From assembly GCA_021373255.1 (NCBI GenBank), contig JAJFTD010000123.1, positions 2,351 to 66,350 on the forward strand: a stretch of DNA of 64,000 nt, in the 5' to 3' direction. The first letter of the stretch is position 1. Every line of letters starts with the position of its first letter. A model generated the notes under the pieces. That model made no database searches, was not told the origin of the DNA, and saw only the letters and a list, made by a program, of their open reading frames with translations. Below, piece after piece: positions 6,431 through 41,163 of this stretch. A program made the position numbers and the translations under genes. The stretch comes from a bacterium. GTDB lineage: Bacteria; Armatimonadota; UBA5829.

Positions 6431-6435
6431 CCTTA

Positions 6436-6471
6436 CATTGGGGAACGCAGTTCACACTCCGTTCCCCAATG
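6436..6471. terminator. Bidirectional hairpin between the convergent HAD and ohr genes
   Basis: cattggggaacg (6436-6447) pairs with cgttccccaatg (6460-6471), a 12-bp perfect stem. Confidence 0.6.
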
Positions 6472-6478
6472 CATATCT

Positions 6479-6895
6479 TCATTCCACGATCAGTGCTACG
6501 TCTATGTTGCCTCTGGTGGCTTTAGAATAAGGGCAGACGTCCTGATGGGCTTTGTTCACTATCACTTCCGCCTCTTCCTGACTGACACCAGGAAGCTTGC
6601 AGTGAAGCTCTGCCGCCAGCTTCCAGCCGCCATTATCAGGGATAACACTGACATTGGACGTAATACTGGCGTCTCCAACGTCTTTCTTCTGCAACTGAGC
6701 AACCAGCTTGACAGCACCCAGGAAGCAGGCTGCGTAGGCAACCGCGAAGAGTTGCTCGGGATTAGTCCCCTCCCCTCCCGGTCCGCCGAGTTCCTTTGGT
6801 AGAGAAAGGTCAACATCTATTTTACCGTCCGATGTCCTGCCGTGTCCCTCACGACCTCCGGTGACTGTCGCGGTAGCGGTGTAGAGTTTCTGCAT
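6479..6895 (-). CDS. ohr: Organic hydroperoxide resistance protein (OsmC/Ohr family)
   Basis: 'MQKLYTATATVTGGREG...' with the two conserved Cys contexts 'AACFLG' and 'VCPYSKA'. ATG at 6895 has an upstream GGGGGA RBS; the listed start at 6958 is probably too long. Confidence 0.85.
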   Translation of the reverse strand: MQKLYTATATVTGGREGHGRTSDGKIDVDLSLPKELGGPGGEGTNPEQLFAVAYAACFLGAVKLVAQLQKKDVGDASITSNVSVIPDNGGWKLAAELHCKLPGVSQEEAEVIVNKAHQDVCPYSKATRGNIDVALIVE

Positions 6896-7116
6896 TTGAT
6901 GGTATCCCCCTGGTTGAACGAGTTTGACTACCTTCGTATTGTTACCCAGGAAGCTCATCTTTTAACCGCTAAAGATTTTCGGTTATTTATATATCAACCC
7001 GGCATTCCGATCAGAGCAAGCGCAATAATCGTAAATCTCCGGGAGAGTTTTTTGCTCGACAGGTAGTGCTAACCGATTACATCAATTGCCAAAACTCAGT
7101 AGGTGCCTTTCGTGAG

Positions 7117-7887
7117 CTAGGATATAATTAATTTGATTGCGGCTGCGCCCGCGAGTAGCAACACTACAGTTTCGAATGTACGTTGGGATATTCTGAGGAG
7201 CATCCATTTTCCAATAAACACACCAACCAGAATAGCCGGGAGCAGCATCAGGTCGATCAACAAACCATGAACAGTCAGCATCGGCTTGGCAGGGTGCAGC
7301 CTGCTTAAAACGGCGTATACGGGGACCTTGCTCAGGTTCATAATGAAAAAGAACCAGGCCAGGGTACCGATGAACTGCCGCTTAGGCATCTTGAGACCGG
7401 CAAGATAAATGGACATAACCGGGCCAGCAGCGTTTGAGACCATTGTGGTGAACCCTGCCACGGCACCTGTGCCAAGGACTCCGAGTTTGGATTGAGGGGT
7501 AAGCTTGTCGCCGAATCGGCCTTTAAGTATATGAAGCGCAAGCATTCCAAGCACCATAACCCCGATCACTATGCCCAGGATGTCCTTGGTGCTCTTCGAC
7601 TCACCTACCAACCACAGCGATATCATACCCGCAATCATCCCCGCAGCCACCCACGGGAACAGTTTCACCAGCTTGTCCCACTGGGCGTGCTGCCTATACC
7701 ACAACACCGCGAATACATCTCCGAAGATCAACATGGGAGTCATAATGCCGGTGGCTTGCCAACCGCCGAATGCCATCGCAAGGATCGTCACTACCAGTAT
7801 GCCCGCACCAGGCATCCCCGTCTTCGATATACCAACCAACAGCGCTGCTGCTGCTCCGTATATCCATTGCCAAAGCTGTATATCCAT
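7117..7887 (-). CDS. TauE/SafE (DUF81) family anion exporter
   Basis: A 256-aa polytopic membrane protein with 'GISKTGMPGAGILVV' and a repeated-half architecture typical of TauE/SafE. Confidence 0.75.
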   Translation of the reverse strand: MDIQLWQWIYGAAAALLVGISKTGMPGAGILVVTILAMAFGGWQATGIMTPMLIFGDVFAVLWYRQHAQWDKLVKLFPWVAAGMIAGMISLWLVGESKSTKDILGIVIGVMVLGMLALHILKGRFGDKLTPQSKLGVLGTGAVAGFTTMVSNAAGPVMSIYLAGLKMPKRQFIGTLAWFFFIMNLSKVPVYAVLSRLHPAKPMLTVHGLLIDLMLLPAILVGVFIGKWMLLRISQRTFETVVLLLAGAAAIKLIIS

Positions 7888-7985
7888 TTCTACTTCCCAT
7901 ACAATAAATATCAGAGACTAGCTCCGAGGAATATTATACACGAGATTGATGCGCAAAAGTTGTAGAACAATCGCGTATCTTAAAC

Positions 7986-8014
7986 TTGACAGGATGCATA
8001 GCAGGTGGTTAAAT
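7986..8014 (+). promoter_or_regulatory. Candidate sigma70 promoter for the LacI-family gene
   Basis: TTGACA (7986-7991), 17-nt spacer, TTAAAT (8009-8014), about 40 nt upstream of the CDS. Confidence 0.4.
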
Positions 8015-8052
8015 AAGCATGAGGTTGCGTTATTCGTGATCAGATTTGGAGG

Positions 8053-9090
8053 ATGCCTGTGGGCAAACATACTGTAACTATTAAGGATGTAGCCGCACTG
8101 GCAAATGTATCTGTTGCCACTGTCTCGAATGTAATACGCGGCAAGGATGGTCTTTATTCAACGGAAACGGCACAGCGTGTGTGGGATACTATAAACTCCT
8201 GCGGTTATCAGCCGAACCACGCCGCTCGCAGCCTGGTACTTCGCAGAACCAACACCCTCGGTATTGCCATAGAAGAAGAAACACATGGTGTATTCACCCG
8301 CAACGCCTACATCAGTGGCATCCTGGATGGTTTTCTGGAACATGCCCTAGTTGAAGATTATCAGATAAGAATTGTCCTCACAAAAGATTCCACAATAAAC
8401 CAGATCAGATCCACATGTGAAGATGGATCAATGGACGGTATACTTGTAATCGCTCCCACCCTGATTGGCGATTTCATTCCATGGCTGAAAACCTCACATT
8501 TGCCATCAGTAGTTGTGGGCAGCATTCCTCCCGATCTACCATGTCCGTGCATAGATGTGGATGATGTGCAGGCCGTGTACAGGCTCACGAAACTCCTGAT
8601 TGACAATGGGCATCGCAATATCGGGCTGATTAAGGCGCAACCTGCATTATGGACATCCAGGCGTCGGGAGCAGGGTTATAAGATGGCACTCGACGAAGCC
8701 GGCATAAAGTGGAAATCTGCATGGATACAACATGGAACTGAAAGCACCCTGAACGCCGGTCGGACATGTGCTTTGGATATTATAAGAGAAGCACCGGAGT
8801 TGACTGCCATAGTTTGTGCCAACGACTATGTGGCGTTGGGAGCAATGGAGTCACTACGCGAGCAGAAGATCCGTGTATGCGAAGATATATCCATTGTAGG
8901 ATTCGATAACATTGAGGCCGGACGATGGTCCAGCCCCAACCTCACAACAGTGTCTCAGCCGCTCCACGACATGGGCCGAAAAGCCACGGAGATGCTGATA
9001 GACCAAATAAGAACGGGCATAAAGGAAGCAATCACTACCCTTTACCCCGGCACGCTGATACAACGTCAAAGCGTTAAGAAGATCGCGTAA
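8053..9090 (+). CDS. LacI family transcriptional regulator
   Basis: N-terminal HTH 'VTIKDVAALANVSVATVSNVIRG' plus a periplasmic-binding-protein-like core. GTG at 8059 has better RBS spacing than ATG at 8053. Confidence 0.9.
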   Translation: MPVGKHTVTIKDVAALANVSVATVSNVIRGKDGLYSTETAQRVWDTINSCGYQPNHAARSLVLRRTNTLGIAIEEETHGVFTRNAYISGILDGFLEHALVEDYQIRIVLTKDSTINQIRSTCEDGSMDGILVIAPTLIGDFIPWLKTSHLPSVVVGSIPPDLPCPCIDVDDVQAVYRLTKLLIDNGHRNIGLIKAQPALWTSRRREQGYKMALDEAGIKWKSAWIQHGTESTLNAGRTCALDIIREAPELTAIVCANDYVALGAMESLREQKIRVCEDISIVGFDNIEAGRWSSPNLTTVSQPLHDMGRKATEMLIDQIRTGIKEAITTLYPGTLIQRQSVKKIA

Positions 9091-9095
9091 CCGTT

Positions 9096-9851
9096 TTATT
9101 CGTCTTCGCTTTCCATCTCACCGACCTTGAGCTGGACGTCTGCCCTCTCTTCAATCCTCTCCACACGGCCGTCGCGAATCCATACGATACGGTCTGAAAT
9201 GTCGAGCATTTTGAGGTCATGCGTGGCGGAGATGATGGTGACTCCCTGCTCCCTGTTGAGCTTTCTCAGGAGTGCGATAATTTCCTTGCCGGTCTTGAGG
9301 TCAAGGTTGCCTGTCGGCTCATCGGCGAGGATAATCGCGGGATTATTGGCAAGCGATCTTGCAATGGCGACGCGCTGCTGCTGTCCACCTGAAAGCTCAG
9401 TCGGCTTGTGATGGAACCGCTCACCAAGGCCAACCAGCCTCAGGAGTTCCATGCCTCTTTCGATACCCTCATCCTGCGGGGTACCTGCAAAGACCGTAGG
9501 AAGCACCACGTTTTCCAACGCCGTCATAACCGGAATCAGGTTAAAACTCTGGAAAATATAGCCGATAGTGCGGCAGCGGAGGTAGGCCAGTTCCTGAGCG
9601 TCGAGCTGAGCCATGTCGACGTCATTGATGAACACCGAACCCGACGATGGCTTATCCAATCCACCAACCATATTAAAGAGCGTGGACTTACCCGACCCGG
9701 ACGGGCCCATTATCGATATATACTCACCTTTGTAGATGTCGAGTTGTATGCCCTTCAACGCTTGAAGGGTCTGGCCGCCCATTGTAAACTCTTTGATAAG
9801 GTCTTTAGTGCGGACGACATATTCTCTCTTAGGAGCAGTTGCCGTTGCCAT
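9096..9851 (-). CDS. ABC transporter ATP-binding protein, MacB/LolD/FtsE type
   Basis: Walker A 'GPSGSGKST', signature 'LSGGQQQRV', Walker B 'ILADEPT'. It lies immediately downstream of an FtsX-type permease gene. Confidence 0.9.
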   Translation of the reverse strand: MATATAPKREYVVRTKDLIKEFTMGGQTLQALKGIQLDIYKGEYISIMGPSGSGKSTLFNMVGGLDKPSSGSVFINDVDMAQLDAQELAYLRCRTIGYIFQSFNLIPVMTALENVVLPTVFAGTPQDEGIERGMELLRLVGLGERFHHKPTELSGGQQQRVAIARSLANNPAIILADEPTGNLDLKTGKEIIALLRKLNREQGVTIISATHDLKMLDISDRIVWIRDGRVERIEERADVQLKVGEMESEDE

Positions 9852-9893
9852 TATATATTGTCACCTCGCAACGATGTAAAGGATCAGTTGACT

Positions 9894-11177
9894 CTATATC
9901 TCGGCCCGCAGAGCAATAGCCGCGGGCATATTAGCGGCGCGAAGCGCCGGTGCGATTGTAGCCACAATAGTGATAAACAGCCCTATCCCGACGGCTTCAA
10001 AGAACATCTTGAACACGTCAGCAGGACTAAGAGTTGCAAGCACCGCCCATCCTCGGGAGAAGCCCGCCATAACCACCATCAAAACAAATCCGATCAACCA
10101 GCCAAATATGGATGCGACAATGCCCATCATACCGGATTCAAGCATAAACAGGAGAACAACAAACTTGTCCAAGGCACCAAGGCACTTCATTGTCCCAATT
10201 TCCTTGAAGCGCTCGGTGACGGACATAAGCATGCTGTTGGTGATGCCTACGCTGCAGACCAGCAGCGACATTATCACGAGCCAATAGGTGCGGTATCTTA
10301 CGTTCCTGTCCGGCACCAGCACATTGTCGCCATCGGCCAGCCGGATGGAACCCGCATTTGTATTATCTTTGGTGAAGTCCGCCAGGATCCTGCGGCCATT
10401 GTGATTTACGATCATCACGCTCTTCATATCAGCATCCTTGCTCGGACCTCGGGCTTGCTTGAGGGCGTCAGCCAGCGTGAGCGCGTATCGTTTGTCCAAC
10501 GTCGTAATGGCACTTGAGGGCACAGTCTTGAAAATAGCGTATCGCTTAGCCCGGCTGGTCCAGAGTGAGACCCAATAAGGTTGCTTGGCTATCTCGGCTG
10601 CGAGCGCGCTCTGTTTTATTGTGCTTGCATCACCAGCGATGTGCTTGATCATACCCCACGGCACTCCGGCCTTCTTAGCCTCACCAAGACTCAGGTCTCG
10701 ATCACCAGTTGTAACTTCATAGAGCTTCTTGTCAACCTTCTTCAGGCTTCTGGATTCTGACTTAACCCGAGCCAGATTACGGTCTGCCCTCTTGGCATCG
10801 GCAATACCCTGTGCAATAGCAGTGAGACTGAATGTCTTGCTGCCTGATGAAACGCGCTCGATAACGGTACGGGAAATGCCCGCCTTGATCCCTTCATCGA
10901 CGCTGATCGATTTCCATGCAGAAAACTCTCCGAGACCATTCACCTGTCCATCAAGCATGAACGTTCCAGGCGCAATTTTCTCAGGCAGCGGCCACTGCAA
11001 CAAAGATTGGGTAAGCACTGTTGTAAGGAACGCAATACCCAGAAAAATGCCGCTTGCCGTGACGATCGAACGCCCGAACCTGGCTTTCATGCTATCCAGA
11101 GCAATCTGAAATGCGCGTCGGAATGGAAGCTGCGTCTGTCTCCCAATAGTAGGGTTATTTACGGTTGCCTTTGACAC
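9894..11177 (-). CDS. FtsX/MacB-type ABC permease with a large extracytoplasmic domain
   Basis: TM1 'IVTASGIFLGIAFLT', a loop of about 250 aa, then an FtsX core 'FKEIGTMKCLGALDKF...'. GTG at 11177 has GGAGG 9 nt upstream; the listed TTG at 11225 would overlap the upstream gene by 71 nt. Confidence 0.8.
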   Translation of the reverse strand: MSKATVNNPTIGRQTQLPFRRAFQIALDSMKARFGRSIVTASGIFLGIAFLTTVLTQSLLQWPLPEKIAPGTFMLDGQVNGLGEFSAWKSISVDEGIKAGISRTVIERVSSGSKTFSLTAIAQGIADAKRADRNLARVKSESRSLKKVDKKLYEVTTGDRDLSLGEAKKAGVPWGMIKHIAGDASTIKQSALAAEIAKQPYWVSLWTSRAKRYAIFKTVPSSAITTLDKRYALTLADALKQARGPSKDADMKSVMIVNHNGRRILADFTKDNTNAGSIRLADGDNVLVPDRNVRYRTYWLVIMSLLVCSVGITNSMLMSVTERFKEIGTMKCLGALDKFVVLLFMLESGMMGIVASIFGWLIGFVLMVVMAGFSRGWAVLATLSPADVFKMFFEAVGIGLFITIVATIAPALRAANMPAAIALRAEI

Positions 11178-11589
11178 TCTTCTTGCCTCCAGGGGACATA
11201 AGGCCGATAAGGTTCTTCTTTGCAAGGGTCTGGAGAAACATCGTAACAGATGCTTCCGCCTCCCTGCGCGTCAGCTTATAATTGCCACTGACGGAATCAA
11301 CGACAGAATTTATGTTGCGCTCGCCATCACACTGCTCCCACACATAAGAGCCCACCTCATCCAGGGCGATATGCCTGGAACCCGGCATCTTAGGAAGAAG
11401 CCGTTTGATCAACCGCGCGAGCCAGTCATCACGCAATGGGACGTCGAGCGTGATCTCACTGCCCTTACACTCCCACTTGATGACCGGATTTCGCACCGGT
11501 ATAACCGCCAACGCCTGCCTGCGGTCGATTTTCGGTTTCTTTCGAACGAGCGGAACGAACTTGCTTATAGAATCGCCTATGGCGCTCAT
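11155..11589 (-). CDS. PqqD-family (RRE-like) protein
   Basis: 'LDEVGSYVWEQCDGERNINSVVDSVSGNYKLTRREAEASVTMFLQTLAKKNLIGL' matches the PqqD winged-helix pattern. AGGAA RBS lies 6 nt upstream. Confidence 0.6.
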   Translation of the reverse strand: MSAIGDSISKFVPLVRKKPKIDRRQALAVIPVRNPVIKWECKGSEITLDVPLRDDWLARLIKRLLPKMPGSRHIALDEVGSYVWEQCDGERNINSVVDSVSGNYKLTRREAEASVTMFLQTLAKKNLIGLMSPGGKKSVKGNRK

Positions 11590-11598
11590 TTCAATTTC

Positions 11599-12513
11599 CT
11601 AATCTTTATGACACTTGATGGTATCGCGGACTCGTTCAGCCACATCATCGCCGTCCACATGGGTAGCACGCACACCGAACAAACGGTTTGATGGCTCACA
11701 ATACCACGCATAGCCCGAAATCAGCCCCGGGAATGGATGAAGCGTAAATGAACTTGCCACGGCTTTAGCAGCCTGCTTGATACCACTCCTGCGGCCTTGC
11801 AATTCGATGCCTTCGTGTCCGGCGACTGCGTGTTCAGTCAAATCATAATGATAGCCCTTGATATCAGGACCAGCGTCTTTTTTGTACCACTGCTCTATGG
11901 TATCTGTGCTGAGCAATGTAGCCGCTAAGCCCCATCGCTCGATGATCAACGCTGATTTACCTCGCTGGAAAGTCAGCAATAGATAACCCGATGCCAGAGT
12001 CTGTTTCTTGATCACATAGCCGGGTGGAACCGCAAACTCAAGCCCGAACAACGCCCAGTTTGTCCACCCATCCTCGCGATGGTCCACAATCGAACCCAGC
12101 ATCACTGGGGCAATGCCGGACATATCATCATCTCGCGCCGACACAATCTGCGCGATTATAACCCTGTCACACTGCGAGCAGTATATCAGCCGCCCCTGCC
12201 CCAACGTATCGGAGCGCCAGACAAAATTAGCCGAGTTGCTGTCCACATCATCCAACTTAACCTTGCTGGAGAACTTCAGCCTCTTTTTTCGATGCGTCTT
12301 CTCCAACCCGGAGAGATATTCCCGACCTTTTACCAGCAGGTCCGGCTTTTTACCCAACGCGGACGACCACCTTACTTCCAACGCGGAAGCAACAGGGCCA
12401 TCCACCCTAAAGTAGCCTTTCTTCGCGTCTCCATCGACTCCCACAAGGCTCCAGTCTTCTGGAACCTTGAGAGTTATCCCCTGCCACCCGACGGCGGCGA
12501 GTTTTTTTGCCAT
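11599..12513 (-). CDS. Hypothetical soluble protein (304 aa)
   Basis: Long ORF in the operon with no TM segment or recognisable motif. ATG at 12513 is preferred over GTG at 12519. Confidence 0.6.
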   Translation of the reverse strand: MAKKLAAVGWQGITLKVPEDWSLVGVDGDAKKGYFRVDGPVASALEVRWSSALGKKPDLLVKGREYLSGLEKTHRKKRLKFSSKVKLDDVDSNSANFVWRSDTLGQGRLIYCSQCDRVIIAQIVSARDDDMSGIAPVMLGSIVDHREDGWTNWALFGLEFAVPPGYVIKKQTLASGYLLLTFQRGKSALIIERWGLAATLLSTDTIEQWYKKDAGPDIKGYHYDLTEHAVAGHEGIELQGRRSGIKQAAKAVASSFTLHPFPGLISGYAWYCEPSNRLFGVRATHVDGDDVAERVRDTIKCHKD

Positions 12514-12689
12514 AATCACCAGCTATTAACTGCAGCCTGCCAATCCCGCAACTGCAGCTATATCTCTTCATGAATTACATAATCCATTGAACCACAAGCG
12601 TCACTGTCGCGCAAGGAAGCAGTTCTAGTGTATTTCTCTTCTGTTAGAGTGCGTTCGGCTGAATTGGTTGTTATTTACTAATATCCGCC

Positions 12690-12745
12690 AAATTGTGCAT
12701 CCGGCGGCTTCGGCATCAGGATGCCGAAGCAACCAGCATTGACTC
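12690..12745. repeat. Conserved intergenic hairpin element, copy 1
   Basis: attgtgcatccggcgg, then stem gcttcggcat/atgccgaagc (12707-12730), then caaccagcattg. A second copy at 25906-25960 has compensatory stem changes. Confidence 0.6.
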
Positions 12746-12815
12746 TTAGACTTTCTAACCTTGTGACTTTATGACCTTATAACATTCCAACCAATTTATC
12801 GCTGTCGCGATTAAA

Positions 12816-14810
12816 CTAATAAGGCAGATAGTTCACGGACTTCATAATAAGAGCGACTGCAATGCCTGTCATAGCGGCAAGGCCGGTGCCGCACCCAAAG
12901 CCTGCAACGAGGACCGGAGCGTATTGGGTCCATCTGACCTCTCCGAACCTCTTGCGAAAATAGAATCTGCCCAGCAGAGCGCCGCCGAACATCGGAATGG
13001 TGGTCATCGGTGCGCCTTGGATTCCACCCATAAACCCGTAGAAGAATAGCAATGGTACCTTGGCCATACTGGAAAGAGCATATAGAACCAGCGTACCGGC
13101 GCCTGCTCCAAAAATCACATTAGGCCGAAGAGCATTAAGGAGCCAGTTATCTTCCAGGCGAGCCTTATTAGCAGTCCACCAAATGGAGGCCAGGGTAGCG
13201 TTGACCGGCCACATCTTCTGCACAAATGGGAACTGCGCACTTGGAATTGGGCTGGTCTTCCAGAAGAAGCTCCAGAAGAAGAAGCTGGTCGGGAGAATAA
13301 CCGCGAGTTTCAAGCCTTCAGCCTTAAGAATGCTTGTAAATTTGGTACCGGTAAGCTCGACCTCGCGGAAGAACTGCGCCATCGGGCCAAGATCGTTCAT
13401 AGGTATCGGCGCGAACCAGATGTCCATCTCCTTGTAGCCGCTCTTGATGATGGTCGCCTCCCTGATCATCGGGAAGCCGACACCGGAACCCGTAAGGCCG
13501 ATAAGTCGGCCAGATGTATAGGAAATCAACGGTGTGTAGAGCAAACCATAGCCCGCAATGATCCACACGGGAAACTTAGGAACAAGAACATGCGCAACCG
13601 ATATCTGTATCAACGTTGCCACAAACCATATTCCAATTGATAGCAGGATATTCCAGTCTCCACGCCCTTCCGGTATCGACCGCCTCATCGTAGGTCGTGC
13701 CGCTCGGCTTCTCATTTTGAAGAATGTGCCCATCACTGTGGCAATGCCGATCATGCCAATACCCAGGGCAGTCCCGATACCAACACTCATCCAGAAGTCT
13801 ATGGTAGTAGACATCTGCGTTTGCAGATACGGGGTGCCATAGGTCCAGTGCGGGAACATACCCAGCTTGTAGAGCACAGGGTTGAGGCCGATCTGGCATA
13901 TCACCGAACTCAGGAACGAACCCATAACAATCGGGAACGGTATAACGAACCCGACCATCACATTGGCAAGATCTCCCGATAGCGCAGCCCACGCCGCAGG
14001 CAGCACCCGTTCAGTGTTGGATGTAAAATCCATAAACGGTATTGGTATCAGCTTCACCGGCTCAGCAAAAAGCACACCAGTCACAATTGGAATGAACAGG
14101 TAGATCACACCAAAGATCAATCCGATGACTGTTCCAGTGGAGAATACCTGCCACCGCCAAGACTCTTCTTTTGTTCCGGCTTCAGCAAGCGCCGTTGCGC
14201 CTGCGGCTGCAATCGGAGCCATTGGGAACGGCAGGCGCTCGACGTCTGATGTCATGCGGAATACTACGTATCCACCACCGATACTTATCATCCTGCCAAG
14301 GAATTCGTAAAGCACCAGCAGTGCTATTGGAATCACCCATGATGCGCTGAAGAACGTCCTCTGCGCAATAGCAGGATCGTTGGCCGGTGGAGCGACCCAA
14401 TGCGGGATACCTCTGGCTAGTTCGCCTATCTGCGGACACTGGACCAGATACTGGTTCCATATCAGCGTGGAGAACGGGCCGCCAGTGAGTCCTGCGGCAG
14501 CTCCGGCTCCCATAAGTCCGCCAGCCACATAGAACAGGATATAAAGCTCCTGTTTCTTAAGTGGCTGGAACGACCTGCGCGCCAGTTCCGCGAAAAGAAC
14601 TATTGTAACCCACTGCGCCGCCGCTCCAAGACCGGTGCCCGCTACCAGGCCCAGGTACATTGCACCAGGCATCATGACAAAGCCGACAAACAAGGCGCCG
14701 ATAACCGTGCGCATTGTAAAGCCGTCTTCGAATTTTTGGTGCTGGACGTCCTCCCCGGACACATCAGCCAGGGACTCTCGCGCCGTTTCTATATCTTGAT
14801 ATTCAGCCAA
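12816..14810 (-). CDS. Polytopic membrane protein, OPT (oligopeptide transporter) superfamily-like (tentative)
   Basis: 664 aa with at least 14 hydrophobic segments. N-terminal 'FTMRTVIGALFVG...YLGLVAGTGLGAA' resembles bacterial OPT proteins. TTG start has AGGTGA 6 nt upstream. Confidence 0.5.
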   Translation of the reverse strand: MAEYQDIETARESLADVSGEDVQHQKFEDGFTMRTVIGALFVGFVMMPGAMYLGLVAGTGLGAAAQWVTIVLFAELARRSFQPLKKQELYILFYVAGGLMGAGAAAGLTGGPFSTLIWNQYLVQCPQIGELARGIPHWVAPPANDPAIAQRTFFSASWVIPIALLVLYEFLGRMISIGGGYVVFRMTSDVERLPFPMAPIAAAGATALAEAGTKEESWRWQVFSTGTVIGLIFGVIYLFIPIVTGVLFAEPVKLIPIPFMDFTSNTERVLPAAWAALSGDLANVMVGFVIPFPIVMGSFLSSVICQIGLNPVLYKLGMFPHWTYGTPYLQTQMSTTIDFWMSVGIGTALGIGMIGIATVMGTFFKMRSRAARPTMRRSIPEGRGDWNILLSIGIWFVATLIQISVAHVLVPKFPVWIIAGYGLLYTPLISYTSGRLIGLTGSGVGFPMIREATIIKSGYKEMDIWFAPIPMNDLGPMAQFFREVELTGTKFTSILKAEGLKLAVILPTSFFFWSFFWKTSPIPSAQFPFVQKMWPVNATLASIWWTANKARLEDNWLLNALRPNVIFGAGAGTLVLYALSSMAKVPLLFFYGFMGGIQGAPMTTIPMFGGALLGRFYFRKRFGEVRWTQYAPVLVAGFGCGTGLAAMTGIAVALIMKSVNYLPY

Positions 14811-14892
14811 TGGTGGTCACCTGTTAGCGTTAATGCGTTGCGCGTCTTGCGTCTCGCGTCATTTAGTCGTGCGTCTTGCATTTGGCGGTGGA

Positions 14893-17800
14893 CTAGACTT
14901 TTGCAGTCTCCGTGCCACGCGCATCTTCGGCAGTTGTTGCCGCAAGGTACTTTTCTCTCTCGCTGGCTCGCATTGTTCTCCATATCAGGAATTGCTTGCG
15001 CAGCGTGTTCAGGAAGCGTCTGTTGACGCGTTTCCAATTTGATACATCACCGCTCTCACGCGTGATCTTGAGCTTTACTTCGTAGACATCTTCCATATCA
15101 GTGGGTATTGTATGCAAATCCACTGTCTGGCTCACACCGAGGTCGAAAGGAGCAAGCCATGTCTTTGCACCAACAGAGAACGACTTGCCATACTCAGTTT
15201 CAGACTCGCCGGATGTGACACCCTGAGTCACAAAATCACCTATGGAGTAGTCTTCATAAGCCTGGAACCATTCCTTGAGGAAGCCGTTGACACCAACAGC
15301 CTGCTCGCCAGTTACGGCGAACGGAAGCATAATCTCCCAATCGTCGCCGTCCGGTTCGGGGACTTTCCACGAACGGTCAACCGCTGGTGTAGCTACCTCT
15401 GACGCTTTCCTAGCAGGATAAAGCGCGCTTAAGAGCACCACCGCGACGACCACAAGCGTGGAGGTAACAGCCGACATAGAAGAAAAGTTCAAATACAATC
15501 CCGGAAGGGCATTGGTGGAGTAGAGTATCTTGCTGGCCGTCTGGCCCAATACATACCCGGCGACAGCCCCCAGGTTCGCATATACCATGGATTCAGCAAT
15601 AAAGAGAACTGCGATATGGTTTGGCGCAAGGCCGATGGCACTGAATATACCGATCTCACGAATTCTCTCGTATACCGAACCAAGCATCGTATTCAAAACG
15701 ATAAGTGCAGCAATGAGCACTGGGATAAAGACGTTGCTAAAGCCCTTGCTCGAACTGGAAGAAATCGAGCTATACCTATATATAGAACCGTCCATACCAG
15801 CGTATAAATTGAGGCCAAGCCTGGGCATAAGGGCGTCAAGCTGCTTTTGGACCTCTTCAAATGAGGCAAACTTAATCGCGATCGACCTGATGTCGCCACC
15901 CATACCCATCAGTGTATCGTAAGGTATAGTAAACACTGTGTTTGGATCAAGGTGCTGATATTCCCTGAACCCGGCATCCCCACCCTGCTGCTGATTCTGC
16001 TTATTCATCATGATGAAGTCCACAGGGGTAAGCTGCTCGTTATCCAGGTCTTTTATCCTCTTATAAACAGATGTCCTGGTAATTGCGACAACGGTATATT
16101 TCGCGCCCGCGAACTCGATTTTTGCTTTACCTACATCGCTGGGTTTGATGTTCAGGGCAGTCGCAACGGCATCCGGAATGATGATCGAATAAGGATCGAC
16201 TTTGCCGGGAACACGCTTGCCGTTTTTGTAACCAAACCAGTCACCAGCCAGAATCGCCTTACGGTTCTTCGTGTTGAGGTCCATGATATCGACCTCTTCA
16301 GGAGTCATCCCACACGCGGCCTTGGCATCATAAGAAGCATCGCCATTCCGCAGCGTCAAGAACGACTGCTCACCAAGGATAGTACCAAAGAACCACGACC
16401 TTGGAGCAACCGGATAAACTTTTCCACGCTTACCAGCATTGCCGAACTCGTCCTTGAGGAGCCTGTATGCTATCTCCTGCAGCGGGGACCACATAGGCGT
16501 TCGGATCATAATTCCATCGTATACATGCGTATCAGCGTCCTTGGGAGCAGGGATTTTGTTAAATCGCAGCACTGATTGAATCGATGTGAACGATAGCACG
16601 GTAAATGTCAGCAGTACCAGCGTAGTGCAAGTAAGGACTGTCCTTGCTTTACGGCGTCTCATGTTGGAAATCCCAAGTGAGAACGCGGCAGCGGCAACAC
16701 TCATTCGACCAATGTCAGCCTTGTGGATGCCGCCCACACTACGGTTCATCTGCTTGAGCTGCTCTTCGAACTTGCCCGAGACTATCGAAATAACCAACAG
16801 GCTGAGCGCGAGCATAACAAACGCCAGCAATACAATAAATGCATTAGCCGGGCCAGTGATCTGGAACGCCGGGTGCACCAAGTAGAACACGCCACAGACT
16901 GCAAGGAAGATCAAGAAGAAAGCTGTGAGCTGCTTCCAAAGTGTCGGATAACCGAAGAACAATCGCTCACAGAAGAACGAGAACGGGATAATCAGGAACA
17001 AATAGAAGATGACTCCGTTAACTACATCTTGCGAGAGCTTGGAGACCCCAGGATAAGCCCTGGCTTCGTATCCCCAGGCTGCCCGACAGTAGGAGTCAAA
17101 CACGCTGTATTCATGTGAGTTCCTAGCATTTTCGGCAAGGTCGAGATACCTGCGTGAGGTCTGGTGCAGCATCTGGAGACCTTCGTCCTTGACACCCTTT
17201 GCCTCAATACCTGCTAGCCTGCTTTCATCGAGCTTCCACATATCGTGGGCAACCTTGAAAGCAGTTTCTTCAAGTGTCCCACCCTGCGTGAAGTCGTAGC
17301 CAATGCCGATCGGTGACGGGTTCATCTTTATGAATACCCGCTTTGTCCCGGCTGGCAGATCGCTGGTCAGCTTGATTCTGCCCTCAATGAGCGACGGATC
17401 ATTATAAACATTATCCTGCGTGCGGCAGTAGTTGGTCTGCTTGCACTTGGGATCAGCGTATACACCCTCGATGAACGTCTCTATAGGCTGATCGAGCTTA
17501 ATGCTCTTACCATCCGCACTAACTATATCGGCGGGCACAACCTCGTTTCCCAATGTCGAATTGAGCAGCAAAAGCCTGATGGCAGCCGGGCCCGCGCTCA
17601 TCATCAGTTTGATTCTGATGCGCCTGAGTTCCTGGCTGGAGCCTATAGCAAGCTGCTTTTTCTTGTTGGTGTCTTCTGTGAATATGACGGCCATATCCTC
17701 AACGTGCGGATTACCCGGTTCGGGAACCGCAACAGCGCAACCAAACTGCTTAGGAGCGCCGTTGGTAATGCCGTCGTAAATGTTGAGCATCGTCAACGCG

Positions 17801-20259
17801 GATAGAGACTGCGGATCGACCAAATCATATACGGAAGTCGCCTTGCAATCAAAGACTATAACCGGCATGTCTTTATAACCGGTTGTAATCAGGAACTCGG
17901 TTGGATAAACCTCACCATACGCACCCTGGTCAGGCGCCATGACAATGTCACCGTTCACCGAATCGAGCTTGTATGCACCAATAGCTGTCTTTCTCTGGTA
18001 GTTGTAAGCTGTTACCGGAGCCACACCTGGAATGTTGAACGCGCCCTTGTCCCGGGAGGTCTTGTCTATAATGTTCGCACGAACACCCATAAAGGACCTG
18101 TATGGGCTGCGTACAACCGCCAGGCAGTCCTTAACCTTGATGTTCGGCACAAAACCCTTTCGCGGGTCATACTGGACAACATTGCCGCTCAGCCTTGCAA
18201 ACCCACCCTGCAGGCCCATTCTGCTGAACGAACACCGCTCATCAACGCCCAATCTTGATATCGGCTTGTGGCATACATAGACTCTCTTCACCCAATGAGG
18301 CAGAGCCTTGGTGAGCTTGAGTTCACCTTTTGCCAGTGACGCAGGCAAGTACTTATCAGACTTGGGTTTGAAGTAGCTTTCGCCCTTCCCTTTTGCGTCG
18401 GTATAAACACCGACCACATATCCGATTCGCAGCGGATCGACTAGTTTCACAGTCTTACGATCAGCAACTTTCGCCTCGACTACCTCGTCCTCAAGCATAG
18501 TCTTGGTGTCATGGAACCAGTGATCAGCAATGCACGCAACGAGTGTGAGCTGCTTGCCGAGGTTGTCGAAATTGACCCTGTTTGCAGTGTCGAATGGGGT
18601 ATCGACCAACTGCCGGCCATCATCTACACTCACAAGTGAAACGCCCTTGCCTCCAGCGAGGGTCACCACTTCACTGTCCAAAGCAAACTTGCCCGGCACG
18701 AAGTTGCGCCAGTTCTTGCCGGAGATTGGGTTCACACCATCCGCAAACGCTCCCGCGCGAGGGCCAAGAATGGCGGCGATCCGCTCAGAGTTCTCACGCG
18801 CCCTGGTAGCAAGGTCAGAAAACTTGCTCTGGATATCCTCGCGCATATCGTAGAAATAGCCTTTGTAAAAGACACCGACACTCTTAGTCTGGCTGCTCAA
18901 ATCCAGCCCGGCCCATATATAGAACTGCGGAGGATCGGGCACCTGATAATCAAAGCCTTTGTGGAAAGCTGAATTCAAACTGTGGCCATAGCCGAACACC
19001 AGCACCGCAAGTACTATCGGCACGACAACTATCCAGGCCATTCGTTTCTGCAAAGGCGCGATACGACGCCAAATTGCCCAAACTATGGCTAAGAGAACAA
19101 GAGTGATCAGCACAGGCGGCCAATTGACTGCGGGGTTTTGTGCGCCGACTGGCCAGTGGGAGTTCATGTAGGCGTGGTATTTATCAGATGCACCAGGGAT
19201 TCGGTAGGAATCGATGTGCTTTTCCATATAAGCCCGCATACCCGCGAGGCCCTGGAAGTGACCGCTGGTTGCAATAAACATCACCGAGCGCCGTGGCCTG
19301 AACTCAGGATTGCTGTAGAGTCTGGCTAATTCCAGCATTCCCGATATGCCACAAGCGGGTTCCGCGCTGGGTGCGAGGGCTGGGACGACCGATGTGCCGT
19401 CGTAGGAAGCGTGCAGCACTATCCACTGATCGCGGAGCTTAGGATCGGAACCGCGTATCACACCTACTATATTACGTGCGTTAACCTTCTCCCAAGGCAT
19501 CTTGCAGAACACGCGGGCATCCTGGGCGCTGCCGGACTTGATAAGCGTCTTGACCTGCGCGGCGTCATTCTTGGATATCCAGAATCTGGGCATTGAAACA
19601 GGAATGGCGCTGAATTTGGACTCCGCTTCGCCTCGCATCGTAGCATCCGGCTCCACGAACAGCAGCACTTTTGCGCCGAGCCTCGGTGCGTTGAGCCATT
19701 CAGTGCCCGAGTTAAAATCAACCAGGGCTGCGCTGCCCTTAACAACAGTTCCATCAAAATCAGGAAGCCTGCCGCTGCCTGCATCGATTACATGGACATT
19801 AATTCCTTCGGGGGGAAGGCTCGATGTGCGGACCAGGTTCGGCCACAGGGCATATATTGGAAACTGCCTTTTACCGATAACCAACCGAGAACCCTGGTCC
19901 ACCGGGACAGTAACCTTGAAACTTTCAGAATGTATATCCTTGAGCCCGATCTCTTTGAACTGGCTCTCTACATAGTCCGCAGCAGCTTCACAACCCGGGT
20001 AGCCCACCAGCCTTGAAGAACAGGATGATAGCGTGTCTACGCTCGCTTTTACACGTGACATATCCAGGGAATCTGCAATGGCTTTGTATCTGTTAGCTAC
20101 AGCCGGAGAAACGCTGTTGGCTGACACAGTGACTGCCGCCGGAACTGCCTTAACGCTTTTCGGAGCCGGTTTTTTAGCAGGATATATGAGGATTACTAGA
20201 ATAAGGGCAACAACTGCCAAGAACAAGTAATTGCTGAGCCTGAATTTGCCGTTCGCCAT
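14893..20259 (-). CDS. Fusion protein: signal anchor, PA/M28-peptidase-like ectodomain, repeat region and FtsX-type permease module (1788 aa)
   Basis: M28-like blocks 'IVLHASYDG' and 'FIATSGHFQGLAGMRAY'. FtsX blocks 'NMRRRKARTVLTCTTLVLLTF' and 'IREIGIFSAIGLAPNHIAVLFIAES...LYPARKA'. Several additional TM segments are present. Confidence 0.8.
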   Translation of the reverse strand: MANGKFRLSNYLFLAVVALILVILIYPAKKPAPKSVKAVPAAVTVSANSVSPAVANRYKAIADSLDMSRVKASVDTLSSCSSRLVGYPGCEAAADYVESQFKEIGLKDIHSESFKVTVPVDQGSRLVIGKRQFPIYALWPNLVRTSSLPPEGINVHVIDAGSGRLPDFDGTVVKGSAALVDFNSGTEWLNAPRLGAKVLLFVEPDATMRGEAESKFSAIPVSMPRFWISKNDAAQVKTLIKSGSAQDARVFCKMPWEKVNARNIVGVIRGSDPKLRDQWIVLHASYDGTSVVPALAPSAEPACGISGMLELARLYSNPEFRPRRSVMFIATSGHFQGLAGMRAYMEKHIDSYRIPGASDKYHAYMNSHWPVGAQNPAVNWPPVLITLVLLAIVWAIWRRIAPLQKRMAWIVVVPIVLAVLVFGYGHSLNSAFHKGFDYQVPDPPQFYIWAGLDLSSQTKSVGVFYKGYFYDMREDIQSKFSDLATRARENSERIAAILGPRAGAFADGVNPISGKNWRNFVPGKFALDSEVVTLAGGKGVSLVSVDDGRQLVDTPFDTANRVNFDNLGKQLTLVACIADHWFHDTKTMLEDEVVEAKVADRKTVKLVDPLRIGYVVGVYTDAKGKGESYFKPKSDKYLPASLAKGELKLTKALPHWVKRVYVCHKPISRLGVDERCSFSRMGLQGGFARLSGNVVQYDPRKGFVPNIKVKDCLAVVRSPYRSFMGVRANIIDKTSRDKGAFNIPGVAPVTAYNYQRKTAIGAYKLDSVNGDIVMAPDQGAYGEVYPTEFLITTGYKDMPVIVFDCKATSVYDLVDPQSLSALTMLNIYDGITNGAPKQFGCAVAVPEPGNPHVEDMAVIFTEDTNKKKQLAIGSSQELRRIRIKLMMSAGPAAIRLLLLNSTLGNEVVPADIVSADGKSIKLDQPIETFIEGVYADPKCKQTNYCRTQDNVYNDPSLIEGRIKLTSDLPAGTKRVFIKMNPSPIGIGYDFTQGGTLEETAFKVAHDMWKLDESRLAGIEAKGVKDEGLQMLHQTSRRYLDLAENARNSHEYSVFDSYCRAAWGYEARAYPGVSKLSQDVVNGVIFYLFLIIPFSFFCERLFFGYPTLWKQLTAFFLIFLAVCGVFYLVHPAFQITGPANAFIVLLAFVMLALSLLVISIVSGKFEEQLKQMNRSVGGIHKADIGRMSVAAAAFSLGISNMRRRKARTVLTCTTLVLLTFTVLSFTSIQSVLRFNKIPAPKDADTHVYDGIMIRTPMWSPLQEIAYRLLKDEFGNAGKRGKVYPVAPRSWFFGTILGEQSFLTLRNGDASYDAKAACGMTPEEVDIMDLNTKNRKAILAGDWFGYKNGKRVPGKVDPYSIIIPDAVATALNIKPSDVGKAKIEFAGAKYTVVAITRTSVYKRIKDLDNEQLTPVDFIMMNKQNQQQGGDAGFREYQHLDPNTVFTIPYDTLMGMGGDIRSIAIKFASFEEVQKQLDALMPRLGLNLYAGMDGSIYRYSSISSSSSKGFSNVFIPVLIAALIVLNTMLGSVYERIREIGIFSAIGLAPNHIAVLFIAESMVYANLGAVAGYVLGQTASKILYSTNALPGLYLNFSSMSAVTSTLVVVAVVLLSALYPARKASEVATPAVDRSWKVPEPDGDDWEIMLPFAVTGEQAVGVNGFLKEWFQAYEDYSIGDFVTQGVTSGESETEYGKSFSVGAKTWLAPFDLGVSQTVDLHTIPTDMEDVYEVKLKITRESGDVSNWKRVNRRFLNTLRKQFLIWRTMRASEREKYLAATTAEDARGTETAKV

Positions 20260-20617
20260 CGTTACCTTTCCCTTGCAAAGAATGGAAAAGCGTTCCTGTA
20301 AACTGATCTATAGAGAGTGGAATAGAGTTACTAGAACGTTTTATGACGTCACGCAGGAATACATGGGGATACCCAACTACACACTACCTGCGTGGTGATT
20401 ATAGCATATGGCATGGGAGCATTGCAACAACTAATGGAGTCCAAGTCCGCAGCCAGCATAGCCATTGTTCCTAATATAAGCAAACGATATAGCCTATACT
20501 GAGATAGTTCTCCATAACGGTGGTTATCACCTTCATCGCTGCTGTATAACCTCAAAAAAAGACGGTGTAAACGGTCAGCAGATAAAGTCCGGCAGTTTTA
20601 TGCTGGTATTGTTTTGA

Positions 20618-22615
20618 TTATTTCCACTTGGAGTCTGGAAGGAGTTTTTTGAGTGCGGCAATCTCATCCCGCAGCTCAGCGGCACGTTCGAAGTCAAGAG
20701 CCTTGGCCGATCTCTTCATATCACGCTCCATATCCGCAACCGTGGAGAGAATATCATCAAGAGACAGCACCTCAGCTCGCGCAGCCTTGCCGGTTTTCCC
20801 TGAAGCCGATCCATCGCTCTCTTTTCCGAGTTCAAGGAGATCCCGCACTGCTTTGGCAACAGTTGTCGGCGTGATGCCATGTTCCTGGTTATACTCGTCC
20901 TGCACTGCACGCCTGCGGTTGGTCTCGGTGATGGCACGGCGCATGGAGTCGGTCACATTATCCGCGTACATAATTACCTTGCCTGATGAGTTTCGGGCGG
21001 CACGGCCCATGGTCTGCATGAGTGATGTCTCATCGCGCAGGAAACCCTCTTTATCGGCATCGAGAATGGCGACCAGCGAGACCTCAGGAAGGTCTAGTCC
21101 CTCACGCAGGAGGTTGATGCCGATGATGGCATCATACTCACCCAGGCGCAGGTCGCGAAGAATCTCCGTGCGCTCCAGCGTCTTTATGTCCGAGTGCAGA
21201 TAATTGACTCTGAGGCCAAGTTCCAGCAGGTATTCGCTCAGATCTTCCGACATCTTCTTGGTGAGCGTCGTCACAAGCACCCGCTCACCCTTTTCGGCCC
21301 GGCGCTTCATTTCGTCGATCAGATCATCTATCTGCCCGGCAGTCGGACGCACCTCTATTTCGGGGTCCAACAGGCCGGTTGGCCGGATAAGTTGCTCCAC
21401 AATCTGCTTGCTCTGCTGGAGTTCGTAGTTGCCAGGGGTAGCCGATACAAACACAACCTGATTGATCAGCTTCTCAAACTCCTGGAACTTCATGGGCCTG
21501 TTATCCAACGCGGACGGCAAGCGGAAACCATACTCCACAAGTGTAGTCTTGCGGGACCGGTCACCTGCATACATTCCATGAAGCTGCGGCAGGGTCTGGT
21601 GCGACTCATCTATAAAAATCAGGGAGTCTTCCGGGAAATACTCAACCAATGTGTGAGGTGTGCTGCCGGGCTCGCGGCCGTCGAGAATCCGGGAATAGTT
21701 CTCGATGCCACTGCAGTAGCCGAGTTCCCGCATCATCTCCATGTCGAATCTCGTCCGCTGTTCTATGCGCTGAGCCTCAAGCAGTTGCCCGCGTGCTTGA
21801 AATTGCTTCACGCGCTCATCAAGCTCCTGTTCAATTTCCGCAAGCGCGCGCTCCATCTTATCCGCAGACGTTACAAAGTGGCTGGCGGGGAAGACAGTGA
21901 TATCGTTCTGAGTGGAGGTGATCTCTCCTGTTACCGGGTGAATCACATTGATTTTTTCGACCTCATCACCAAAGAACTCTACGCGCGTGAAGACCTCCTC
22001 GTCCACCGGCTGAATCTCCAGGATATCTCCGCGCACCCTGAACGTTCCGCGCCCAAGGGCGATGTCGTTTCGGGTAAAATGCATATCAACCAAACGCCGA
22101 AGGAGTTGGTCGCGATTGTAAACCTCCCCCACCTTAAGGCGGACTACTGTTTCGCCATAGTCCTCCTTTGCGCCGATGCCATAGATGCAGCTCACACTGG
22201 CAACCACAATTACATCACGCCGCTCCAGTACCGCCTGCGTGGCGGAGTGGCGGAGGCGATCGATCTCATCGTTAACCGCGGAGTCTTTCTCAATGTATGT
22301 ATCGCTCTGGGGAATATACGCCTCGGGGAGATAGTAATCGTAATAACTAACGAAGTATTCTACAGCGTTATCCGGGAAGAACTCACGAAACTCCGAACAA
22401 AGCTGAGCCGCAAGGGTCTTGTTGTGCGCGATCACCAGCGTCGGGCGTTGGACGGCCTGGATGACGTTTGCCATCGTAAAGGTCTTGCCCGAGCCGGTAA
22501 CACCCAGCAGTGTCTGGAATCTATGCCCGGCTTCCAACCCCTCGGTTAGTTGCGCTATGGCTCGGGGCTGGTCACCCGTAGGCTTGAAGTCTGATCTGAT
22601 CTTAAACTGGTTCAT
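20618..22615 (-). CDS. uvrB: Excinuclease ABC subunit B
   Basis: '[11 protein letters not shown]', Walker A '[15 protein letters not shown]', helicase motifs and a C-terminal UVR motif '[16 protein letters not shown]'. ATG at 22615 is preferred over the listed TTG at 22645. Confidence 0.97.
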
Positions 22616-22709
22616 TTGGCTCTTCCGTATCGCACGTTTGTTCAATGTACATGATACGGCTATGAGGGTCTTTGGTCAAGGTGGCGGACAGCTAATGTTG
22701 GCGGGTTAA

Positions 22710-24641: not shown

Positions 24642-24711
24642 TACGAATATGATACACCTCAGCCTGTACTGGGTCAAATATTCGAGCTGGCGTCACATAA
24701 AAAATCAGGCA

Positions 24712-40263: not shown

Positions 40264-40299
40264 AAACTACTGGACTTGTTAACAGGAACCAAACATAAA

Positions 40300-40330
40300 G
40301 GCGTGCGGAAAACTCCCGCACGCCTTATAT
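40300..40330. terminator. Bidirectional rho-independent terminator
   Basis: ggcgtgcgg aaaactc ccgcacgcc (40300-40324), flanked by aaa on one side and ttatatatt on the other, between convergent genes. Confidence 0.75.
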
Positions 40331-40380
40331 ATTCTTCTATCACCTAGAAACCTTCCGACAATCAACAAAATACTGTAGAT

Positions 40381-41067: not shown

Positions 41068-41113
41068 CGTAAGATAGCCTCCAAGCTTATGAATCAGTAA
41101 AAGTCAATGCGTA

Positions 41114-41137: not shown

Positions 41138-41163
41138 CGCTCTCATCAAATAAGCACCAGCAA

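Follow-up and report, generated by a model that had tools for sequence, protein, structure and literature searches.

A six-gene cluster conserved in Armatimonadota: a candidate type VII ABC mechanotransmission system with a peptidase-fold ectodomain

The stretch of DNA studied here, called the window below, comprises 64,000 nucleotides (nt) of contig JAJFTD010000123.1 from a member of the Armatimonadota (assembly GCA_021373255.1). Six co-directional genes occupy its minus strand from position 20259 to position 9096; they are named A to F in this order. The products of five of them, the permeases A and E, the ATPase F and the cytoplasmic proteins C and D, likely form one ATP-binding cassette (ABC) complex of type VII, i.e. 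a MacB/FtsX-fold system working by mechanotransmission. Two hallmarks of this class were found: the FtsX topology, with a first transmembrane (TM) segment, an extracytoplasmic domain and TM segments 2 to 4, and an ATPase of the MacB/LolD/FtsE group encoded alongside. More tentatively, and by analogy with known systems, we suggest that the cluster as a whole may remodel the envelope or peptidoglycan, with B importing the peptides released.

Gene content and conservation

The open reading frame (ORF) calls on the window agree exactly with the original prediction, which had described six minus-strand genes with these lengths and with gaps of 82 nt (A-B), 302 nt (B-C), 9 nt (C-D) and 42 nt (E-F) and a D/E overlap of 23 nt. 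Small length differences for C and E are due to the choice of the start codon (Table 1): the 304-aa form of C is the database gene call P0121, and the GTG start of E at 11177 gives rise to the overlap with D. All of the protein types proposed at that time were recovered as well. The FtsX permease, the MacB/LolD-type ATPase and the orphan PqqD-like protein matched the Pfam models FtsX, ABC_tran and PqqD, respectively; the 304-aa protein is soluble, as proposed, and has a tandem Mog1/PsbP fold; the OPT-like nature of the 664-aa protein was borne out by its predicted structure, not by sequence profiles.

To judge conservation, one genome per GTDB species was scanned. At least 595 loci with a relative of B were found, and the gene order of the best 80 was determined by tBLASTn and ORF analysis; 61 of these had enough flanking DNA to be informative. 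The best relatives of B are proteins of Armatimonadota metagenome-assembled genomes (MAGs), and all 80 loci belong to this phylum save one MAG labelled Janthinobacterium, which we take to be mis-binned. The gene-neighbourhood check that had been proposed gave a clear answer: the full order A-B-C-D-E-F is present in 52 of the 80 loci, i.e. in 52 of the 61 informative ones. B stands alone in eight (mostly Fimbriimonadales, plus bacterium HR15, L052), among unrelated, variable neighbours none of which is conserved. A-B without C-F occurs in Abditibacterium (L076, one of the 61) and in locus L088. Identity to the window proteins falls to ~45% (A), 50% (B), 27% (C), 32% (D) and 65% (F). Because it drops so low, the common order reflects an old, maintained synteny and not a recently shared segment. 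The six-gene cluster nearly amounts to a signature of the Armatimonadota, a phylum that has been described as having poorly conserved operons.

One might instead regard the cluster as three independent units that share a neighbourhood for historical reasons: a membrane protein A with a role of its own, a general oligopeptide importer B, and a small ABC system C-D-E-F. The loci with B alone or A-B alone point in this direction, as do three loci with C-D-E-F and neither A nor B (L083, L084, L086), the hairpin-bearing 302-nt B-C spacer of the window and, in Chthonomonadales, unrelated inserts of 0.4-2.8 kb at A|B and B|C, which include defence and mobile genes. However, 52 of 61 informative genomes retain the order, even where protein identity is as low as ~45-55%, in a phylum described as having poorly conserved operons, and the gaps between the genes are short in most loci. 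Moreover, A has an FtsX module and no ATPase of its own, and the sole FtsX-type ATPase gene of the cluster is F. We therefore consider independent units unlikely. The earlier description as one compact unit holds as far as synteny is concerned but not in the sense of an indivisible one, since C-D-E-F is separable, B occurs alone and inserts are found at A|B and B|C.

Some of the inserts are described here for the record. In some Chthonomonadales, a gene fusing DUF2092 with a redoxin/thioredoxin lies between A and B (L027 8621-9820, L038 8494-9648); DUF2092 has a LolA-like fold. At the same site, other lineages carry genes for a DNA methylase and Uma2, for AAA_21 and DUF4276, or for a prolyl oligopeptidase. 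A gene for a ~275-aa protein is located between B and C (L027 11942-12769, with equivalents in ~15 Chthonomonadales loci). It was considered as a paralog of C and rejected; it encodes a membrane protein with the C-terminus HSGHNNVLYCDGHV, which we take to resemble the H-X9-DG motif of pseudopilin-like proteins.

A peptidase-fold ectodomain fused to an FtsX permease

A has orthologs of 1500-2240 aa in related loci. It begins with an N-in signal-anchor, and by topology ~1,250 residues are extracytoplasmic: a PA/M28-fold domain, a domain of no recognised fold and the periplasmic core domain of MacB type. Pfam Peptidase_M28 matches residues 263-366, with the first half of the profile only (33 bits; cut-off 21.3). 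A profile of the PA/M28 region matches the aminopeptidases 2ek8 (5e-24) and YwaD (6hc6, 2e-19), and that of the ectodomain also matches transferrin receptor and nicalin.

The active site was checked in a 53-sequence alignment of A and its orthologs (52 homologs), using the numbering of the Vibrio aminopeptidase. The family has Tyr, Ser or Phe at the position of His97, Glu or Asp at Asp117, an invariant His at the general base Glu151, Phe, Tyr or His at Glu152, and Asp at His256, where 'WYHTPED' of YwaD aligns with 'LVDTPFD'. The canonical set of zinc ligands (His, Asp, Glu, Asp, His) with the general-base Glu was found in none of the 52 homologs; three of the five metal ligands and Glu151 are replaced family-wide. 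Since its catalytic residues are replaced throughout the family, A is not a canonical M28 peptidase. Its ectodomain is probably non-catalytic, a pseudo-peptidase like transferrin receptor or nicalin. Thus, of the PA/M28-like-FtsX fusion in the original prediction, the folds stand, whereas peptidase activity is doubtful.

These data also bear on the idea that the cluster serves nutrition, with A as an active, non-canonical metallo-aminopeptidase that has ABC-powered access to its substrate, B as the importer of the food and C and D as peptide-handling proteins. Such a device would agree with the M28/PA fold of A, the OPT fold of B and an alternative set of acidic and His residues conserved in A at the former metal site (D287, E/D300, H334, D453, D553). 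A prolyl oligopeptidase gene between A and B (L071) and a tricorn-like protease beside B (L073, L077) would fit as well, and cultured Armatimonadota depend on external amino acids. Yet the replacement of Glu151 and three metal ligands extends over the whole family, the C-D-E-F core without A and B is left unexplained, and so are the paralogs of C beside ftsW/rodA (see below). Nor do we know of any ABC-powered feeding protease. A nutritional role seems rather improbable to us.

One surface loop of the M28 fold carries an extra two-helix TM hairpin in the window clade and in Chthonomonadales (L027), whereas L001, L020 and L053 have no such hairpin and an uninterrupted fold. A TM hairpin inside an M28 fold would be an unusual tether for an ectodomain. 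The middle part of the ectodomain (~500 aa) found no match in a profile search of PDB sequences. Pfam FtsX matches residues 1511-1620 (8.9e-16), and the orthologs in L001 and L089 have a MacB_PCD entry. A degenerate second FtsX module in the N-terminal half, of the BceB or ADOP kind, was rejected: in hhalign the 3-TM bundle reached a probability of 0.05% against FtsX TM2-4. The cytoplasmic tail has 60% mean identity and the invariant motif NWKRVNRRF..R.QFLIWRT, and matched nothing among PDB sequences and no CARF model in Pfam. A relation of the tail to C was tested and not found.

The membrane part of A leads to another alternative, namely that the tail is a CARF-like sensor of a nucleotide second messenger and A an effector of antiviral defence. 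Residues 1075-1764 match the PADLOC model 'CARF_m8--CARF_LolE_TM' (PDLC01991) with an E-value of 4e-54, the 3-TM bundle aligning with model positions 74-207, and the model 'CARF_m8--CARF_Beta-galactosidase_LolE_TM' matches at 1e-24. But the TM bundle and the FtsX module account for almost the entire score. The tail alone gives 10.9 bits (E-value 0.022) at model positions 550-683, the last 127 model positions are absent, and the tail finds CARF in neither Pfam nor PDB sequences. No cas or cyclase genes were found nearby, and conservation throughout most of the phylum, next to housekeeping genes, does not resemble a defence island. We hold a CARF effector to be highly improbable. A defence system in general was rejected as well, as PADLOC gives only generic ATPase matches for F and the CARF_m8-LolE model for A in a housekeeping context. 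Because the score stems from the membrane core, A belongs with this core to a family already modelled in PADLOC, and a CARF domain is not thereby shown.

The C-D-E-F core

In the 443-aa ORF of E, Pfam FtsX matches residues 317-434 (6.7e-16), and the TM map fits the FtsX topology. Its orthologs have 203-220 aa in most lineages, where the ectodomain is nearly absent, and up to 628 aa in the closest relatives. TM2-4 of E and the FtsX helices of A share 27% identity (hhalign probability 96%), a value similar to that for LolC and LolE. Judging from this alignment, the FtsX permease modules of E and of the C-terminal part of A are paralogs. The A-E heterodimer of the original prediction is thus plausible; as E is found without A elsewhere, it is not required.

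F matches Pfam ABC_tran (6.6e-34). Its best NCBIfam models are LolD (231.7 bits), MacB, DevA, the darobactin exporter ATPase DarD and FtsE, all below their cut-offs. F always adjoins E, and C and D of the cluster always accompany E and F.

D has, like C, no signal peptide and no TM segment. Pfam PqqD (PF05402) matches over the winged-helix part (1.6e-12, 48 bits; cut-off 23.4). Against the NCBIfam models for lasso peptides, pyrroloquinoline quinone (PQQ) and other PqqD proteins D stays below the cut-offs, the closest being lasso-peptide and PQQ chaperone models. Translational coupling of D and E, through overlaps of 4 nt or 23 nt, is seen in almost all loci. In one locus, on the complete MAG chromosome OY969427.1 (L020 13373-14509), D and E form one ORF of 378 aa, which could be a natural fusion or an assembly frameshift.

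The PqqD fold suggests a further possibility: D could bind the leader of a ribosomally synthesized and post-translationally modified peptide (RiPP) encoded elsewhere, or an antimicrobial peptide, which A, E and F would expel or extract in the manner of MacB, BceAB and the darobactin exporter, and which B would re-import or detoxify. D has a bona fide PqqD fold, that of the RiPP recognition element (RRE), with lasso-peptide and PQQ chaperone models as the nearest. F matches the darobactin exporter ATPase model (3e-63) and a lactococcin 972 bacteriocin-exporter model (1.7e-55), and BceAB-like transporters of the FtsX type make cells resistant to peptide antibiotics. Nevertheless, neither a precursor peptide nor a maturase (radical SAM, lasso cyclase/protease, YcaO etc.) is encoded in or near the cluster in the window or in the related loci examined, so that D is an orphan PqqD protein, as had been proposed. 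The PqqD subfamily scores of D are all far below the cut-offs, and a cluster conserved in single copy over most of the phylum, with housekeeping genes as neighbours, does not look like a secondary-metabolite or resistance island. We give peptide export or resistance little credence.

Outside the Armatimonadota, C, D, a short E and F are found together without A or B in three loci, one of them in a Hydrogenedentota MAG (L084). F of the Hydrogenedentota-like loci is ~70% identical to F of the window. Genes for a single-pass membrane protein with a zinc ribbon and for a lipoprotein-like protein precede the four genes in L084 and L086; in L083 and L084 a gene for a multi-TM protein with GT-C-like motifs (SSKPPL) comes after them, a motif call to which Pfam adds no support. 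These envelope genes seem to encode extracytoplasmic partners particular to their lineages, which take the place of A. Because C-D-E-F occurs without A and B in other phyla, we interpret it as the ancient core of the system, to which A and B were added in the Armatimonadota.

The OPT-fold protein B

B has more than 2245 homologs. It has no match in Pfam (E-value <10), NCBIfam (E-value <0.01) or PDB sequences, the OPT models included. Its AlphaFold2 model, with a mean predicted local distance difference test score (pLDDT) of 75, matches the barley transporter YS1 (7wst) over the full length in Foldseek (E-value 1.8e-10, TM-score 0.62/0.67, probability 1.00), and the following hits have TM-scores below 0.2. 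B is thus predicted to be a divergent transporter of the OPT/YSL fold. This assignment comes from the structure prediction; the sequence profiles give it no support.

The C family and SEDS polymerases

C has no match in Pfam (E-value <10), NCBIfam or PDB sequences. In its AlphaFold2 model (pLDDT 91.9), two Mog1/PsbP-like domains stand in tandem, and Foldseek finds PsbP, Mog1 and the two-domain Tli4/TplEi, an immunity protein of the type VI secretion system. The conserved columns include C112-x2-C115, H145, C272 and C301-H302, a Cys/His cluster which is probably a zinc site.

In a profile search, the C family comprised 1511 clusters at 50% identity, among them proteins of Latescibacterota and Hydrogenedentota MAGs. 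Its distant members occur in two kinds of context. One is the C-D-E-F group with short E and without A and B. In the other, C-family paralogs lie directly downstream of, and co-directional with, a gene for a SEDS protein (FtsW/RodA/SpoVE); this holds for all six further loci (Table 1). The next gene in four of the six encodes a protein of 600-720 aa with the invariant motif W[LM]RE..HEYGH..LP, a zincin (HEXXH) motif, and three of these four proteins start with a signal-peptide-like hydrophobic N-terminus. In one locus, from an Armatimonadota lineage (L088), the trio of SEDS, C-family and HEYGH genes lies ~3 kb downstream of A-B. The DNA between them contains three pseudopilin-like genes (N_methyl and SBP_bac_10; 5989-8342).

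Because they directly follow ftsW/rodA in six of six loci, the C-family proteins are candidates for a new partner of SEDS polymerases. The trio may be an undescribed partner set of these peptidoglycan polymerases.

Proposed mechanism and its weight

The likely A-E-F-C-D complex could work as follows. A dimer of F would energise a pseudo-heterodimer of A and E, as LolD2 does for LolC-LolE. ATP binding and hydrolysis would move the ectodomain of A, which would act on a polypeptide component of the envelope or activate an enzyme that does so. The likeliest target would be the stem peptides of peptidoglycan, as the analogy to FtsEX with its partner EnvC suggests, EnvC being a LytM protein of degenerate type through which amidases are gated (PMC7668044, PMC10214136); peptidoglycan is preferred because of the SEDS linkage of the C family. 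C and D would be cytoplasmic adaptors coupling the motor to the tails of partner proteins or to a peptide cue, and B would probably take up the released peptides.

Several observations are in line with a role in envelope or peptidoglycan remodelling. A degenerate peptidase fold on an FtsX motor parallels the logic of FtsEX-EnvC, and the C-D-E-F block is kept beside envelope proteins in Hydrogenedentota-like loci. The C family recurs beside peptidoglycan polymerase genes and beside extracytoplasmic peptidase-fold proteins, and we also count the prolyl oligopeptidase gene between A and B in its favour. Hence the proposal of a peptide- or envelope-protein-processing machine can be made more specific: the SEDS-linked C paralogs point to the cell wall.

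Other observations weigh against this role and are the reason for our reserve. The cluster is known from sequences and predicted structures. It contains no gene for a peptidoglycan hydrolase, penicillin-binding protein or SEDS protein in the window, and ftsW lies within 10 kb in just two of the 52 complete loci. The phylum is known for just two of the six SEDS-linked loci. The acidic and His residues conserved in A could form a different catalytic metal site. B is found by itself in Fimbriimonadales and is missing in the C-D-E-F loci outside the Armatimonadota; as it is separable, its coupling to the other genes may be co-regulation only. Unrelated genes are tolerated at A|B and B|C, and E is found elsewhere without A, so that the A-E heterodimer is not a necessary assumption. 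To our knowledge, the PqqD fold has no role in any type VII ABC system.

A bolder version would be a closed-loop machine of a type so far undescribed, in which the FtsX motor with its pseudo-peptidase acts on the wall, the OPT-fold protein is the importer, and C and D read either the imported peptides or the tails of FtsW/RodA, thereby setting the activity of both the motor and the SEDS polymerase. This is a long shot. If true, the C family would be a widespread and unrecognised cytoplasmic partner of SEDS proteins.

Other features of the window

The cluster is bordered upstream by uvrB, at a distance of 358 nt from A, and downstream by a convergent gene for a LacI-family regulator. A promoter-like site in the uvrB-A gap has 10 of 12 consensus matches and an extended -10 TG; the call is made from the consensus match alone. 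The B-C spacer holds a GC-rich hairpin, which could be a processing or attenuation site. This spacer is lineage-specific and has ~40 nt in the closest relatives. The hairpin has no riboswitch or other Rfam match, and no Rfam element was found in window positions 8000-23000. A search of the 302-nt and 358-nt spacers for a precursor-peptide ORF gave chance-sized ORFs only and no conserved small ORF; the spacers themselves show no conservation in the closest relatives. A search of the window for tRNA genes was negative.

Elsewhere the window carries unrelated housekeeping genes, among them those for transketolase, transaldolase, ribosomal protein S1 and a SurA-like isomerase. Upstream of uvrB, positions 22710-24677 encode a 655-aa protein with invasin/Big_1 Ig-like domains. 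A 745-aa protein (28154-30391) has no Pfam match. The block 40000-54000 has a lower G+C content (~45% vs ~52%; ORFs 41164-49299, 49307-51358 and 51512-53845) and encodes proteins of 2711 aa and 683 aa with no Pfam match at all, with an S8 subtilase as neighbour. The block may have been acquired as an island or may be the locus of a giant surface protein.

Table 1. Positions of the cluster genes, of parts of protein A and of related loci. Positions are those of the window or of the locus named.
Feature	Sequence	Positions	Strand	Description
Gene A (gene and ORF)	window	14893-20259	-	1788-aa polytopic protein, ~10 TM segments; ectodomain, FtsX module, cytoplasmic tail
PA domain and first half of M28 fold	window	19135-20160	-	A residues 34-375; remodelled active site
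TM hairpin in M28 fold	window	18973-19137	-	A residues 375-429; lineage-specific
M28 second half and ~500 aa of ectodomain	window	17035-18972	-	A residues 430-1075; invariant GLDL and VDTPFD motifs
3-TM bundle and cytoplasmic linker	window	16642-17034	-	A residues 1076-1206; 74% mean column identity
MacB-type FtsX module	window	15400-16641	-	A residues 1207-1620; TM1, periplasmic core domain, TM2-4
Cytoplasmic C-terminal tail	window	14896-15399	-	A residues 1621-1788 (168 aa)
Gene B (gene and ORF)	window	12816-14810	-	664-aa predicted divergent OPT/YSL-fold membrane transporter
Gene C	window	11599-12513	-	304-aa cytoplasmic protein, predicted tandem Mog1/PsbP fold
ORF of C	window	11599-12519	-	306 aa from GTG; 304 aa from ATG at 12513
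Gene D (gene and ORF)	window	11155-11589	-	144-aa cytoplasmic PqqD/RRE-type domain protein
Gene E	window	9894-11177	-	427-aa second FtsX permease; lineage-specific ~240-aa ectodomain
ORF of E	window	9894-11225	-	443 aa from TTG; 427 aa from GTG at 11177
Gene F (gene and ORF)	window	9096-9851	-	251-aa ABC ATPase, LolD/MacB/FtsE group
Promoter-like site	window	20398-20427	-	TTGCAA, 18-nt spacer, TG-TATAAT; uvrB-A gap
Perfect 10-bp hairpin	window	12707-12730	-	GCTTCGGCAT-CCTG-ATGCCGAAGC; CCTG loop; B-C spacer, without T tract
SEDS-linked locus	L085	5560-10146
SEDS-linked locus	L087	8383-13223
SEDS-linked locus	L088	8675-12744
SEDS-linked locus	L091	4805-9251
SEDS-linked locus	L090	2321-4684		at least SEDS and C-family genes seen
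SEDS-linked locus	L092	1094-3441		at least SEDS and C-family genes seen
C-D-E-F locus outside Armatimonadota	L083	10001-14577
C-D-E-F locus outside Armatimonadota	L084	2726-8705
C-D-E-F locus outside Armatimonadota	L086	5148-9433

Comparison with known systems

FtsEX with EnvC, PcsB or RipC shares with the cluster an FtsX-fold permease, a cytoplasmic ATPase and a peptidase-derived extracytoplasmic output without the canonical catalytic residues (in EnvC a degenerate LytM/M23 domain), and members of the cluster family are likewise linked in the genome to cell-wall synthesis genes. In contrast to FtsEX, the pseudo-peptidase is of the M28/PA fold and forms one polypeptide with the permease. The cluster has two permeases that differ from each other, E usually having almost no ectodomain, and FtsEX offers no counterpart to the OPT-fold gene or to the PqqD-like and PsbP-like subunits. 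F scored 200.8 bits with the FtsE model TIGR02673 (cut-off 264.85), and E 20-29 bits with the FtsX models (cut-offs 225-255).

LolCDE resembles the cluster in having two paralogous FtsX-type permeases of unequal function with one ATPase gene, and LolD is the best NCBIfam match of F. The scores are again below the family cut-offs (F with TIGR02211: 231.7 bits, cut-off 307.75; E and A with the lolCE models: 15-25, cut-off 362). Unlike LolCDE, the cluster has no conserved LolA or LolB partner, and A, four times as large as LolC/E, includes additional TM segments, an ectodomain of peptidase fold and a tail in the cytoplasm.

MacAB-TolC, BceAB and YbbAP-TesA pair type VII mechanotransmission with an extracytoplasmic enzyme or duct dedicated to it (PMC5985334, PMC12646458), a logic that the cluster would share. 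The cluster shares with them the MacB-type module of TM1, periplasmic core domain and TM2-4. It differs in that it has no membrane-fusion protein, TolC-like duct or two-component kinase, that its nucleotide-binding domain is unfused, and that its partner domain is fused and of the M28 fold.

The family behind PDLC01991 is similar in the membrane core: of the 810 model positions, 69-683 are covered by A with its 3-TM bundle, its FtsX module and part of its tail. A adds an N-terminal ectodomain of ~1000 aa, and no CRISPR or defence link was found. The CARF_m8 model names in PADLOC presumably derive from the CARF survey of Makarova et al. 2020. In this respect the combination that had been called undescribed has a known element, although we found no paper on the combination itself.

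The individual folds have relatives elsewhere. B has the predicted fold of the OPT/YSL protein YS1 over its whole length, but at 13-15% identity. Unlike other PqqD/RRE proteins, D has no maturase or precursor gene beside it and is translationally coupled to an FtsX permease instead. In transferrin receptor and nicalin, too, PA and M28 folds lacking the canonical catalytic residues serve for binding on the extracytoplasmic or lumenal side; A differs from them in being bacterial, in its fusion to an ABC permease and in the TM hairpin that splits the fold in some lineages. C is predicted to be a tandem pair of Mog1/PsbP-fold domains, like Tli4, but is cytoplasmic, has a conserved Cys/His cluster, shares only 9-12% identity with such proteins and has other gene neighbours.

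Type VII ABC systems are few and each is important: FtsEX in cell division, LolCDE in lipoprotein sorting, MacAB in efflux and YbbAP-TesA in membrane clean-up. None of the papers found joins PqqD with MacB-type or type VII ABC systems, and none describes the cluster in Armatimonadota, a phylum whose envelope biology is almost unknown and of which the cluster is nearly a signature. It would add to the class a member with three features that we found described for it in no paper: a fused M28-fold pseudo-peptidase; two obligatory cytoplasmic subunits, one with a PqqD/RRE fold outside RiPP biosynthesis and one with a tandem PsbP fold and a probable zinc site; and a co-encoded OPT-fold transporter. 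The C family with its ~1,500 clusters may matter more broadly, as its place after ftsW/rodA nominates a candidate partner of SEDS polymerases. Compared with the systems above, the motor would be of a known kind; new would be the fused pseudo-peptidase, the obligatory PqqD-like and PsbP-like subunits, the OPT-fold partner and the SEDS linkage of the C family.

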